Made by a program: the position numbers and the translations under genes
Shown here: positions 13,288 to 18,622 of the stretch, in pieces
Numbering within the stretch: position 1 is the stretch's first letter
How the letters are laid out: each line of letters starts with the position of its first letter
NCBI GenBank assembly: GCA_037380845.1
Contig: JARRRI010000023.1
Location: forward strand, 10,368 to 40,084
Length of the DNA: 29,717 nucleotides
From: Candidatus Sulfobium sp.
GTDB taxonomy: Bacteria > Nitrospirota > Thermodesulfovibrionia > Thermodesulfovibrionales > UBA6898
Direction of reading: 5' to 3'
Notes under the pieces: generated by a model
Told to the model about the DNA's origin: nothing
Database searches by the model: none
What the model saw: only the letters and a program-made list of their open reading frames with translations

Positions 13288-15054
13288 GTGAGAAAATTTC
13301 TCCTGAATACCGGAGCCGCCGCTTTCATGCTTCTGATTTTCGTTTCCTGTTCTACAACAGAGAAGACGGTTCCTCCCGTAGCGGAAACTCTCCCCCCGGC
13401 CGGGATTTCCGAACCGGTCAAACCGCCGCCTGTTGAATATAAAACCCTGATCCGCTGCAGGGAAGATACCAGAATGACTTTTAACAGCTGCGGGATCAGG
13501 GCTCTCCCTTTCATCCGGCCTTCCTTTTATGACATTGACGGCGACGGCCGGCAGGAACTGATCGCCGGCAGCAAGGACGGCTCCCTGCGCCTTTACAGGA
13601 AGGCCGCCGGAACAACCGGCTGGACGCCGGTGCCCCATTATTTTGACGGCATACGGGCGGGCGCCTTTTCCGCACCCGCCGCCGGCGACATTGACGGCGA
13701 CGGCAAGCCGGAGATCCTGCTGGGAACGGGCGGGTTTTCCTCTGATTCCGGGCGGGTCGTGGCATACAGGAATTCAGGTACTCCCGACCAGCCTTTATGG
13801 CAAAAGGCGCCGATGAGAAAAATAAAGGTCGGCAATGACGCCACGCCTGCGCTTGCTGATGTGGACGGCGATGACTTGCCCGACCTTATTGTAGGCAATT
13901 CGAGCGGTCGCCTTTTTCTCTTCAGAAACAGGAGCATGCCTGGAAGCATCTCATTCGTCAGGGACAGATCATGCTTCAGGAACGTACATCTGGGGATGTA
14001 CGCCGCACCTGCTGTCACAGTCTCGGGCGGAAATGTTCTGGTAATTGCCGGAAACAGTATGGGCAGGCTCTACATGCTCGCAAAACATCGGGACAAGAGG
14101 TGCTCGTGGCGAAAAGCGGCACTCAGTGTCAGTCTGAGCAGTTTTGCCGCTCCCTCATTTGTAAAAAACGGGGATCATGAGGAACGGGACCTGGTAGTTT
14201 CGGACGGAGACGGCGAGTTGCACTATTACAGGAATATCAAAAACTACCGGAAATGGGAGGAAATTTCCTCCCCTTTCTCCGGCAGGATCCTGCCGGGACC
14301 TGCCTGCGCACCGGCTGTATCCTCAGTCGACGGCAGGCGCGTCATGGTCGTCGGAAACATCTATGGCAAACTGAAACTCTATGAAGCCGCCGGTACCTCC
14401 GGAAACCTGCCATGGGCGGAGAGGTCCGATTTTTTTGAGGGACTGAAACTTCACGGTTTTTCCAGAGGCGTTCTTACTGTCTGGGAAGGGGACGACCTTT
14501 TGATCACCGGGGAGCAGGACGGTGTGTTGAGGGCCTTTCTCAATGCCGGCAGCTTTGACAACCCAGTGTGGGTGGAGAAGAAAAAATTCTTTGAATCCCT
14601 GCCCAGGATGGAGCACGCTGCTCCGGCAGTTTTCGACATCGACGGTGACGGAAAACCGGAACTCATAGTAGGCAGTGCGGACGGCCGGGTCAGGGCGTTC
14701 AGATATAAGACAGGGGAAAACGGTATGCCACGATGGAGCGAGATAGGAGGAATTTTCGATCAAGTCAGGGTCGACCGCTTCGCGACGCCGACGCTCTATA
14801 AGGATTCCGACAGGTTGTGGCTCCTTGCGGGGGAACAAGACGGAAAAATAATTACTTATGTCGCCGGGCGCGACCGGAAGGGCCCTGAGGCTTTCCGGAA
14901 AAACGGCGTTCTGGACGGCATCCGCGTGAAGAATCACAGTTCGCCCTCGGCAAGGATGAAGGACGGACGGATAAGCCTGTCGGTCGGAGATTACGACGGC
15001 AACCTCTCCCACTTCGCCTGCAGGGAGGAAAGGATCCGGGTCGTAAAGCGGTAA
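13288..15054 (+). CDS. FG-GAP/VCBS repeat lipoprotein (beta-propeller)
   Basis: Lipobox FVSC. Repeated P.F.DIDGDG..ELI.G..DG motifs (DxDGDG calcium-binding loops). Confidence 0.9.
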   Translation: MRKFLLNTGAAAFMLLIFVSCSTTEKTVPPVAETLPPAGISEPVKPPPVEYKTLIRCREDTRMTFNSCGIRALPFIRPSFYDIDGDGRQELIAGSKDGSLRLYRKAAGTTGWTPVPHYFDGIRAGAFSAPAAGDIDGDGKPEILLGTGGFSSDSGRVVAYRNSGTPDQPLWQKAPMRKIKVGNDATPALADVDGDDLPDLIVGNSSGRLFLFRNRSMPGSISFVRDRSCFRNVHLGMYAAPAVTVSGGNVLVIAGNSMGRLYMLAKHRDKRCSWRKAALSVSLSSFAAPSFVKNGDHEERDLVVSDGDGELHYYRNIKNYRKWEEISSPFSGRILPGPACAPAVSSVDGRRVMVVGNIYGKLKLYEAAGTSGNLPWAERSDFFEGLKLHGFSRGVLTVWEGDDLLITGEQDGVLRAFLNAGSFDNPVWVEKKKFFESLPRMEHAAPAVFDIDGDGKPELIVGSADGRVRAFRYKTGENGMPRWSEIGGIFDQVRVDRFATPTLYKDSDRLWLLAGEQDGKIITYVAGRDRKGPEAFRKNGVLDGIRVKNHSSPSARMKDGRISLSVGDYDGNLSHFACREERIRVVKR

Positions 15055-15102
15055 GTACGACTTATAGAATAACAGGCCTTCATTATATCTTCACCGCACC
15101 GA

Positions 15103-15111
15103 TGTTATAAT
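15103..15111 (+). promoter_or_regulatory. Extended -10 promoter for the glutaredoxin-copA operon (probably leaderless)
   Basis: TGtTATAAT ends 7 nt before ATG 15119. No SD. Confidence 0.55.
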
Positions 15112-15118
15112 AATTTTC

Positions 15119-15385
15119 ATGGAATACCCGGAGGTAACAGTCTTTACGGCACCAAACTGAAACGACTGTGCGGCACTGAAAGAGTTTCTTTCGGCAAAGG
15201 GGATCCCTTTCACAAATAAAGACGTCGCCGCCGACAAGGCCGCACGCGAGGAGCTGGCGGAAAAACATGGAAGGCTGGCAACCCCCACACTGATAATCGG
15301 GGACAGGTTGTTCCTCGGGTTTCGCCAGAACAGGGATGAAATAGAAAAGACATTGAAAGAAATCAGCAGGGATAAGAATGGCTGA
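15119..15385 (+). CDS. Glutaredoxin/NrdH-redoxin-like selenoprotein (UxxC), 88 aa
   Basis: [13 protein letters not shown][TGA 15158-15160][74 protein letters not shown]. This is a complete Grx fold with the TP cis-Pro motif, and the TGA is exactly at the first Cys of CxxC. Confidence 0.88.
15176..15194 (+). promoter_or_regulatory. Candidate bacterial SECIS hairpin
   Basis: Stem ctgaaag/ctttcgg with loop AGUUU starting 23 nt after the in-frame UGA. G at loop position 2 is followed by U. Confidence 0.6.
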
Positions 15386-17846
15386 GGATACTCTTACGGA
15401 TGAAAAAAGGATAGACCTGCCCGTTACAGGGATGTCTTGCGCTTCCTGCGCTGCACATATCCAGGAAAGTCTCTCCTCTCTTGAGGGGGTCGGCAGCGCC
15501 TCGGTAAACTTCGCGGCCGAGAGGGCAAGTGTCCGTTATGACAATTCCCTTGCGTCTGTCGATGACTTCATAAAGGTCGTCAGGGACCTCGGATACGGCG
15601 TCTCGGTATCGAAGATGACGCTGCCCATAAAGGGCATGTCATGTGCCTCCTGTGTCGCCAACGTCCAGGAAGCTCTGAGTTCCATGGACGGAGTAATCTC
15701 GGCGTCTGTCAATTTTGCCACTGAGAAGGCGACCGTCGAATATTTTCCATCCCAGGTTGGGATACGGGATTTCAGAAAGGCGGTAAAGGACGCCGGCTAC
15801 GAGGTTGTCGAAGTTGAGAAGGGTGAAGACATAGTAGAAAAGGAGCAGAGAGAAAGAGAGGCTGCATACAGAAAATTGAGAACAAAGGTGATAGCGGGCG
15901 TATTCCTCATGGTGCCCGTTTTCGTCCTTATGCACTGGGACAACCTCGGCCTGTCGCGAATTCTGGCGATGCCCAGACAAATGAATTTTATCCTCCAGCT
16001 TCTCATAGAGACGCCGGTTCAGTTCTGGATAGGCTGGCAGTTTTATACCGGCGCCATCGCGGCGGCCCGTCACAAAACCACGAATATGAATACTCTAATA
16101 GCCGTAGGTACCTCATCGGCTTATATTTACAGCGTCGCAGCTATCTTCTTTCCTTCCCTCTTCGCAATAAGCGGCTACTCGGCCGAAGTTTACTTCGACA
16201 CTGCAGGAACGATTGTCGTGCTGATCCTTCTCGGCCGGCTTTTTGAAGCAAGGGCCAGGGGGCAGACATCCGAGGCGATAAAGAAACTCATCGGCATGCA
16301 GGCCAAGACCGCCAGGGTGATAAGAAACGGGACTGAAGTCGACGTCCAGATCGAAGAGGTGGATATAGGGGAAGTGATCCTCGTGAGGCCGGGGGAAAAG
16401 GTACCGGTAGACGGTGTAATAAAGGAAGGATATTCTTCGATCGACGAATCGATGGTCACCGGGGAGTCCATCCCCGTTGAGAAAAAAGTGGGAGATCCGG
16501 TAATAGGGGCCACTATCAACAAAACTGGATCGTTCAAATTTGAAGCCACCAAGGTGGGCAGGGACACGATGCTCGCGCAAATCATCGACATGGTGCAGTC
16601 CGCACAGGGCACTAAACCCCCGATTGCCAGACTTGCAGACGTCATAGCGTCCTATTTCGTGCCTGCTGTCATCGGAGTGGCTGCCGTTACTTTTGTTATC
16701 TGGTATTTCTTCGGCCCGGCGCCGGCGTTCACTTACGCCGTCCTCAATTTCATCGCGGTGCTGATTATCGCCTGTCCCTGCGCCCTCGGCCTCGCGACGC
16801 CGACTTCGATCATGGTGGGCACCGGCAAAGGAGCGGAAAACGGCGTGCTTATAAGAAGCGGGGTGTCTCTCGAAACCGCTCACAAAATAGATACTGTCGT
16901 ATTCGACAAAACCGGCACCCTGACCAAGGGAACCCCCGAAGTCACCGACGTTATCTCCGGGGGACTGTCCGAAAAAGAGGTCCTGTTTTATGCCGCCTCG
17001 GCAGAGAAGGGATCCGAGCATCCGCTCGGCGATGCCATACTCAGGAAGGCGAAGGACGACGATATTGTCACCAAAGGCGCTGAACACTTCATTGCAATTC
17101 CAGGCCACGGGATCAGGGCAAGGATCGAGGAGAGGAACATTCTGGTGGGCAACGAGCGGTTCCTCACCGACGAAGGGGTCCACATGGAAAATCTGAAAGA
17201 GGCGGCGGCAAGGCTCTCCCTTCAGGGCAAAACCCCCATATTCCTGAGCGTCGATAACAACGCCGCCGGGATCATCGCCGTCGCCGATACGCTCAAGGAA
17301 GATTCTGTCGCCGCGGTAAAGGCCCTCCACGATCTGGGCATTGAGGTTGTGATGATAACCGGGGACAATAAACGCACAGGTGAAGCGATAGCGCAGCAGG
17401 CCGGCATAGACAGGGTGCTTGCGGAGGTGCTTCCTGAAGACAAGGCGAAGGAAGTCCGGAAACTCCAGGCAGAATCAAAAGTGGTCGCAATGGTCGGCGA
17501 TGGAATAAACGACGCACCCGCGCTTGCCCAGGCTGATGTCGGTATTGCTATCGGCACGGGCACCGACGTTGCCATGGAGGCGTCCGACATCACGCTCATC
17601 GGGGGCAATATAAGGGGAGTTGTCACTGCAATAGCGCTTTCCAAGGCTACACTGAGGAACATTAAGCAGAACCTCTTCTGGGCCTTCGCTTACAACGTGA
17701 TTCTCATACCGGTTGCAGCGGGGGTCCTTTTCCCGTTTTTCGGCATATTGCTCAATCCCATGTTTGCGGCTGCGGCGATGGGGATGTCCTCTGTTACGGT
17801 GGTCACAAATGCACTTAGACTCAGACGGTTTCAGCCGGCCGTCTGA
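15378..17846 (+). CDS. copA: Cu(I)-translocating P1B-1 ATPase with two N-terminal HMA domains
   Basis: 2x [41 protein letters not shown] in TM7 and MGMSS in TM8. Confidence 0.97.
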
Positions 17847-17998: not shown

Positions 17999-18622
17999 TT
18001 GAAGAAAGAAGATCCGATGAAATTGAAAATAGGGGTGATGGGCGATGCCGGGGGAGATATTCCTGCGGAGCACAGGGAGGTCGCATTCAATGTAGGCCGT
18101 GCAATCGCCGAATCGGGCTGCATAACCGTCACCGGGGCCTGCCCGGGGCTGCCCCTCGAAGCGGCACGCGGCGCCGGCCTCGCGGGCGGAATGGTGGTTG
18201 GAATATCTCCAGGCCTCAGCCTCTGGGAGCATGTACACAAATACAATTCTCCCACAGAGCATCACGATGTGCTGATATTCACCGGCAGCGGCCTCATGGG
18301 CCGGGAAATCGTCAATATACGTTCCTCCGATATCGTGGTTATCATAGGCGGCCGTTCGGGTACCCTCGGGGAGTTCGCCATTGCTTACGATGAAGGCAAG
18401 TTGATCGGCGTGGTACTGGGCACGGGGGGAATCACCGCTGAAATCAAGAGCATCGTGAAAGTAATCAACAAAAAGACGGGAGCACGGATTTTCTATGATG
18501 ACCGGCCGGACAGACTCATCAGGAAACTCCTGGAGTTTTACAGAAAGGAACACTACAAACACCCTTCGTCCTTCCATGTACGAGAAGCGGAGCCTCTTTT
18601 CACCGACAATAACACACCATGA
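17999..18622 (+). CDS. LOG/SLOG-family Rossmann-fold nucleotide-binding protein
   Basis: KIGVMG, TVTGACPG, VVGISP, IIGGRSGTLGEFAIAYDEGK. GGAGG SD before TTG (ATG 18017 is an alternative start). Confidence 0.88.
   Translation: MKKEDPMKLKIGVMGDAGGDIPAEHREVAFNVGRAIAESGCITVTGACPGLPLEAARGAGLAGGMVVGISPGLSLWEHVHKYNSPTEHHDVLIFTGSGLMGREIVNIRSSDIVVIIGGRSGTLGEFAIAYDEGKLIGVVLGTGGITAEIKSIVKVINKKTGARIFYDDRPDRLIRKLLEFYRKEHYKHPSSFHVREAEPLFTDNNTP

Follow-up and report, generated by a model that had tools for sequence, protein, structure and literature searches.

A probable selenocysteine redoxin gene overlapping copA in Candidatus Sulfobium and related genomes

The window analysed here is a stretch of 29,717 nucleotides (nt) from Candidatus Sulfobium sp. 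of the Nitrospirota (assembly GCA_037380845.1, contig JARRRI010000023.1, positions 10,368 to 40,084 of the forward strand), and the locus in question lies at its positions 15,119 to 17,846. It consists of a small glutaredoxin-like gene, grx, in which a single in-frame TGA is very probably read as selenocysteine (Sec, U), and of copA, the gene for a Cu(I)-exporting ATPase, whose start codon lies within the end of grx. A hairpin resembling a Sec insertion sequence (SECIS) follows the TGA. In window coordinates, the features are:

15119..15385, plus strand: grx, Sec glutaredoxin-like gene of 88 codons, with the predicted Sec at codon 14 in the motif U-N-D-C
15158..15160, plus strand: UGA predicted to be read as Sec, at the attacking position (first Cys) of the UxxC redox motif
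15176..15194, plus strand: SECIS-like hairpin, beginning 15 nt downstream of the UGA, with an 8-bp stem, CUGAAAGA / UCUUUCGG, and a GUU loop
15378..15385, plus strand: overlap of the copA start and the grx stop, ATGGCTGA, with the copA ATG at 15378
15378..17846, plus strand: copA, P1B-type Cu(I)-exporting ATPase of 822 amino acids (aa); two GMSCASC HMA domains at the N-terminus, CPC motif

The grx frame terminates with the TGA at 15383–15385, and the TGA at 15158–15160, which falls within residues 12–17 (P-N-U-N-D-C), is its sole interruption; each element that a preliminary description of this DNA had given for a hidden UxxC selenoprotein glutaredoxin was recovered in place. When searched with C substituted for U, the product matches the Pfam family Glutaredoxin (PF00462; E 4.5e-14, 52.8 bits against a gathering threshold of 22.9) across nearly all of the model, from profile position 1 to 59 of 60. 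In a profile search of the PDB, the best match is 7c10 (E 1.6e-20, residues 4–81), in which the U is aligned to the first Cys of CPHC. The U-x-x-C site is accompanied by a conserved cis-Pro stretch (A-T-P) and by an NrdH-like G-F-R/K-x-N, and the Asp of U-x-D-C is invariant among orthologues. No NCBIfam model is matched above its cut-off; the top matches are the YruB type (TIGR02196, 68.6 bits against a curated cut-off of 88.55) and the NrdH type (TIGR02194, 40.4 bits against 85.75), and no class Ib ribonucleotide reductase gene is seen near grx within the window. The product also scores below the cut-off for the Uxx-star selenoproteins (NF041212 and relatives; 45.5 against 66 bits), a group for which another Sec three residues ahead of the actual protein end is a further criterion, and it has no HMA match of the CopZ chaperone type (PF00403, MxCxxC) in Pfam or NCBIfam. 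Judged from its sequence, the fold, the U-x-x-C site and the A-T-P stretch are those of a thiol/selenol oxidoreductase, and grx very probably encodes a small Sec redoxin with a thioredoxin fold, of the NrdH/YruB-like glutaredoxin type, with the active site U14-x-D-C17.

The position of the TGA is conserved. When 41 related genomes were searched with the grx protein, 17 of them yielded strong matches, at 18 loci in all. Every one of these loci has a single in-frame TGA, which stands in the same column throughout and gives U-x-D-C. Over the eight codons 5′ of the TGA, the amino acids are conserved and the synonymous sites vary in these loci, which indicates that this region is translated; at −2, 17 of the 18 have Pro, with CCA, CCC, CCG and CCT all in use. 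The terminal TGA of grx is a genuine stop, since the 18 orthologues include two ending with TAG and two with TAA, and their tail lengths vary. A second scan, with one genome per GTDB species, gave 42 loci and shares genomes with the first, so that the two samples are not independent. These loci come mostly from metagenome-assembled genomes (MAGs) of Nitrospirota/Thermodesulfovibrionales, including Candidatus Sulfobium, with one from Ignavibacteria, one from Zixibacteriota and one unclassified. The Sec column is readable in 41 of them (all except L075, at a contig end) and holds TGA in 38 and TGT or TGC in three (L051, L069, L074), which is the Cys/TGA alternation at codon 14 that the preliminary description had proposed to look for. 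L051, with TGT, is the single Cys form among the loci closest to the window and calls for some caution, as the isolate name of its MAG shares a prefix with that of the MAG of the frameshifted locus L058.

The genome of the window also has the machinery for Sec decoding, whose absence would have refuted the preliminary description by its own terms. Profile searches found selA (516 bits), selB (331.6 bits) and selD (two matches in the same frame that sum to 311.9 bits, of which the piece with an in-frame TGA gives 215), and contig C31 carries one tRNA-SeC with the anticodon TCA. The selD gene is itself a selenoprotein gene (G000 contig C20, about 72213–73058; L009, L011), with an in-frame TGA at 72243 in the context S-C-A-G-U-A-S-K. 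A small hairpin starts 16 nt downstream of this selD UGA, at a distance similar to that of the grx hairpin and with an unlike sequence.

It is highly improbable that the TGA of grx is instead a true stop, with the real gene being the annotated 69-aa open reading frame (ORF), or that it marks a pseudogene or a sequencing error. Gene callers do annotate only the downstream part: database entries for grx are forms of 51–83 aa, none spanning more than 84% of the 88 codons, and the named ones (67–71 aa) carry the label 'glutaredoxin family protein'. Such a shortened form would, however, lose strand 1 and the entire active site, and it would leave the conserved residues before the TGA and the Cys forms, as well as the Sec machinery, to one side. 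As for a sequencing error, neither TGT nor TGC stands at 15158–15160 in contigs of two other public runs (X2 and X5), which are identical to the window over 15050–15450, although they possibly come from the same sampling campaign; two further runs, X9 and X10, do not cover the TGA. Because the TGA position is conserved, a plain stop or a pseudogene is effectively excluded. With a UGA at the catalytic Cys and Cys homologues, a downstream SECIS-like hairpin and the Sec machinery in the genome, grx has the features of the Sec-glutaredoxins and is very probably a real selenoprotein gene that public annotation has shortened. A search for longer or fused redoxin forms with the database protein P0003 found none that scored among 74 candidates, which is weak evidence.

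The hairpin is kept across most of the loci. In 39 UGA-bearing sequences (38 distinct), 92.8% of its cells are paired, against 38–72% when the partner is slid; double-sided changes occur in five of the eight pairs (16 cells), and none of 500 shuffles equalled the observed covariation score. The compensatory changes stem from distant clades; in L079–L081, for instance, G-C is replaced by A-U and A-U by G-C. Codon choice within the hairpin is constrained, with Leu CTG, Leu CTT and Ser TCR each used in 18 of 18 close orthologues, unlike other conserved residues, which use synonymous codons freely. These patterns suggest that the hairpin is under selection. Other observations weigh against its role as a SECIS element. 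First, the 81-nt single-sequence fold with the hairpin is not significant (z −0.76). Second, the 18 close orthologues, 95.8% paired, show only wobble-compatible single changes and no double changes. Third, a loop G is part of the bacterial SECIS consensus, and the loops here vary (GUU, UUU, UUA, 5-nt), many of them lacking G. Fourth, L076–L078 retain the UGA with another hairpin, which has 6 bp and lies 5 nt closer. Finally, a scan of 15000–15500 gave no Rfam SECIS match, only four matches at chance level (E 2.5–9.6). In the Cys forms, which are three loci only, L051 keeps the hairpin, L069 has a different strong hairpin and L074 has none.

CopA itself has the domains of a P1B-type Cu(I) ATPase, namely E1-E2_ATPase (1.1e-58), two HMA (5.7e-35) and the HAD-type Hydrolase (2.9e-38), and its translation shows the CPC, YN and MxxSS motifs, which we take to be Cu(I)-type signatures. 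Its junction with grx was followed in the 25 closest loci. The two frames overlap in 19 (by 8 nt in 13, by the 4-nt ATGA in four and by 11 nt in two); of the remaining six, four abut, one has a spacing of 40 nt and one, L058, is unreadable owing to frameshifts. In most orthologues, a Shine-Dalgarno-like motif of the GGAGG type for copA lies within the last grx codons, so that copA may initiate independently; the window's own motif is weak (AGGGA). The stop/start overlap makes translational coupling of the two genes plausible, and a lowering of CopA synthesis upon failed UGA decoding is speculative. An apparent in-frame Grx-CopA fusion in L058 (3200–3500) was rejected, because several frame changes occur there within a few hundred bases; this locus comes from a long-read MAG, and the changes, which span the end of grx and the first HMA domain of copA, are most likely assembly indels.

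The preliminary description had also expected homologues of grx to stand next to copA, and a full-length copA homologue lies downstream of grx on the same strand in 36 of the 42 loci. Among the six others, L057 and L070 meet contig ends, L066, L069 and L073 have other genes there, and L072 has only a partial HMA match 2.7 kb away. Three arrangements were distinguished:

Clade A, the window and 25 loci whose copA is at least 70% identical: end of grx overlapping or abutting the start of copA
Clade B, L064, L065, L068 and L074–L078: 140-aa Lys-rich ORF, grx, convergent 62-aa ferredoxin gene, then copA 326–668 nt after grx
Clade C, L079–L081: SHOCT protein gene, grx, gene for a Met-rich secreted protein, then copA; csoR upstream in L081 only

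Clade C is of the Ignavibacteria/Zixibacteriota type; its SHOCT-domain gene lies directly 5′ of grx in each of the three loci, and in L081 csoR is the second gene upstream of grx. The extremely Met-rich protein, of about 150 aa with an N-terminal hydrophobic segment, is encoded between the redoxin gene and copA (L079:3251–3706, L080:3239–3703, L081:3579–4040) and probably binds Cu(I) in the periplasm. In the clade B type (L064, L065, L068–L070 and L073–L078), the protein of about 140 aa encoded 5′ of the redoxin starts with MGFWDKLK, has a Lys-rich tail and has no Pfam match, and the convergent 62-aa gene 3′ of the redoxin is Cys-rich, ferredoxin-like and highly conserved. In L069 and L073, a radical-SAM gene takes the place of copA. 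The MAG G005 holds two Sec-redoxin copies, on contigs C37 (L023/L057) and C84 (L034/L063), which could reflect duplication or strain mixing; copA follows the C84 copy, and C37 ends about 55 nt past the redoxin gene, with the region for copA beyond the contig end. The phylum also has glutaredoxin-like genes that are more distant and contain an in-frame TGA (L093–L095 in G257, G383 and G325, and L033 in G034). These have other motifs (L095 reads U-M-F-C), show no copA match within flanks of about 1.5 kb, and are further uncatalogued Sec-redoxin candidates.

Some of these neighbourhoods fit a redoxin that is a real selenoprotein with a general or other target, such as repair of copper-damaged thiols or Fe-S proteins or a ferredoxin-linked role, and is only co-expressed with copA under copper stress, leaving CopA itself untouched. 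The Lys-rich protein and the convergent ferredoxin are its constant neighbours at mid distance, a radical-SAM gene can replace copA, and the redoxin is dispensable in sister genomes (below). This explanation is nonetheless unlikely, since the stop/start overlap is kept in most of the closest loci, the redoxin gene is linked to copA in three different operon architectures and also outside the phylum, and the other Sec-glutaredoxin-like genes of the phylum showed no copA nearby.

Upstream of grx, the window has a promoter-like element:

15103..15111, plus strand: extended −10 element TG-T-TATAAT, read by eye, 7 nt before the grx ATG

A sigma-70 consensus scan made no call at this promoter, which lacks a −35 match. 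There is no Shine-Dalgarno motif between the −10 box and the grx ATG in the window, and both here and in the congener locus L040 the leader is missing, with the ATG 6–7 nt past the box; the short distance and the absence of a Shine-Dalgarno motif suggest that the mRNA is leaderless in these two. The TGnTATAAT box lies upstream of grx in most of the 25 clade A loci and is followed about 8–10 nt later by an ATTCG-AAC-like box. The box regions are 15082–15118 in the window, upstream of grx in L041–L071 and upstream of copA in L102–L104. The ATTCG-AAC-like box could be the operator of a copper regulator; no regulator gene is adjacent to it in the window. In three sister genomes (G006, G020, G021), the same upstream neighbour, an FG-GAP-like gene (a likeness seen by eye), and the same TGnTATAAT box are followed directly by an orthologous copA (71–75% identical), with neither grx nor an HMA gene between. 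As selA is present in 40 of the 41 relatives, loss of the Sec trait does not account for the missing grx, and copA standing alone behind the same promoter makes the redoxin gene an optional first cistron of the copA unit. That genomes with grx have this promoter box in front of grx, and those without it have the box in front of copA, supports the copper link. In the window, grx is very probably the first gene of the grx-copA unit, as read from its arrangement. The flanking genes encode a 588-aa FG-GAP repeat protein upstream (13288–15054, plus strand), which is also syntenic with copA in sister genomes, and a 207-aa SLOG cluster4/LOG-like protein downstream (17999–18622, plus strand).

From gene context and analogy we infer a substrate and a reductant, and tentatively propose, as a reading only a little short of an even call, that grx encodes a dedicated Sec redoxin that reduces the CxxC metal-binding domains of CopA and is coupled to copA. 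In such a scheme, UGA14 would be recoded by SelB and tRNA-Sec with the hairpin at 15176–15194 as a guide, grx would be transcribed as the first cistron of a two-gene grx-copA unit from the promoter directly upstream, and the overlap of the grx stop and the copA start would lead to both proteins being made together. The redoxin would act as a selenol/thiol oxidoreductase that keeps the CxxC cysteines of the two metal-binding domains of CopA reduced, and perhaps also its CPC site, so that these domains could accept Cu(I) under copper stress. It would be an optional accessory, CopA orthologues of sister genomes working without it. The recycling of the redoxin would probably depend on thioredoxin reductase rather than glutathione. 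In the genome of the window, no GshA (PF04262) or GshB (PF02955) was found, these two being the families searched for glutathione synthesis, and two thioredoxin reductases score over the cut-off; together with the NrdH-like G-F-R-x-N, this suggests recycling by thioredoxin reductase. NrdH redoxins depend on thioredoxin reductase, and the redoxin of the window is probably dependent on it in the same way.

Several points speak against a redoxin dedicated to CopA. The three sister genomes keep copA behind the same promoter box without grx. The invariant Asp of U-x-D-C is unusual for a classical redox site of the CPYC/CPHC kind. Four loci with enough flank (L066, L069, L072, L073) have no adjacent copA, and in clade B the convergent ferredoxin gene intervenes between grx and copA.

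The Sec-glutaredoxin might, as a rather unlikely alternative to a reductase of CopA, be a Cu(I) carrier or buffer whose U-x-D-C selenolate/thiolate pair hands Cu(I) to the metal-binding domains or the entry platform of CopA, which is the job of CopZ. Selenolates are very soft ligands, and human Grx1 binds Cu(I); the U-x-D-C motif with its invariant Asp is unlike classical redox motifs. In Firmicutes-type copZ-copA operons with a CsoR repressor, a small gene of the CxxC type lies directly upstream of copA, and the window is alike in having a small gene directly 5′ of copA, as is L081 in its order csoR-SHOCT-grx; in the distant clade C, moreover, the redoxin gene lies between the SHOCT gene and copA, with no HMA gene among the ORFs scanned. 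However, the redoxin has a thioredoxin fold rather than the ferredoxin-like HMA fold of CopZ, with Sec instead of Cys, and its nearest characterised relative is a reductase. The suggestion of the preliminary description that grx occupies the slot usually held by copZ thus stands only as to its place directly 5′ of copA, since two stand-alone HMA (CopZ-like) proteins are encoded elsewhere in the genome of the window and the slot is empty in the three sister genomes. The grx product may work like CopZ, though it is not a member of the CopZ/HMA family.

A more far-reaching form of the carrier idea is a selenium-based copper-export module. Under physiological conditions in these anaerobes, CopA would then receive its Cu(I) from the Sec-redoxin, or be activated by it, with a selenolate chaperone of thioredoxin fold standing in for CopZ; and because copA starts inside the end of the redoxin frame, the efficiency of UGA-to-Sec decoding would set the amount of CopA. 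We regard this as distinctly unlikely; if true, such a module would tie selenium supply to copper resistance.

Returning to a redoxin that reduces CopA, several known systems offer comparisons. 7c10 is placed with Grx1 of Clostridium (Alkaliphilus) oremlandii (cGrx1), which is described as a native selenoprotein, recycled by glutathione and proposed to be a dedicated reductant of MsrA (PMC7642778). cGrx1 (7c10/7c12) resembles the redoxin of the window in being a small glutaredoxin (about 84–88 aa) with a native Sec first in U-x-x-C, and differs from it in its U-P-x-C against U-x-D-C, in its partner MsrA against the linkage to copA, in the NrdH-like G-F-R/K-x-N stretch of the redoxin of the window, and in its recycling by glutathione against a genome in which no GshA or GshB was found. 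The NrdH and YruB redoxins are the best NCBIfam matches and of similar size, whereas the scores lie under the cut-offs, Sec replaces Cys, and the context is copA rather than ribonucleotide reductase or rubredoxin. Human GRX1 acts on the metal-binding domains of ATP7A and ATP7B. It offers an analogy, in that the CxxC domains of a Cu(I) P-type ATPase are served by a glutaredoxin, but it is Cys-based, glutathione-dependent and eukaryotic and is not coupled to the ATPase gene.

Sec-glutaredoxins (PF00462, UxxC) are an established selenoprotein family, and Sec-containing heavy-metal proteins have been catalogued (PMC13188914, PMC9312934, PMC2398784, PMC1976440). Among the latter, Sec has been predicted in a cation-transporting ATPase E1-E2 (COG2217, UxxC), in 2Fe-2S proteins of the CopZ family and in MerT/MerP (PMC9312934, PMC13188914). 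Such proteins are alike in placing Sec in the copper or heavy-metal machinery of anaerobes; the Sec there is in the protein's own metal site, whereas CopA of the window has Cys (GMSCASC), with the Sec placed in a distinct redoxin whose gene is coupled to copA. In the texts reached by full-text literature searches, no coupling of a Sec-glutaredoxin to copA is described. We regard grx as a new, copper-linked U-x-D-C, NrdH/YruB-like variant among known Sec-glutaredoxins.

The finding adds an uncatalogued and consistently mis-annotated subfamily of selenoproteins and flags a systematic error of annotation. It also brings out a genetic link, conserved among relatives, by which the use of selenium is tied to the export of copper in Nitrospirota that live as anaerobic sulfate reducers in sediments of marshes, groundwater and vents. 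This link points to a possible Se-dependent helper for copper detoxification, and it raises the question of whether a dedicated Sec-redoxin keeps the metal-binding cysteines of a bacterial Cu(I) pump functional, or delivers Cu(I) to it, where glutathione is absent.

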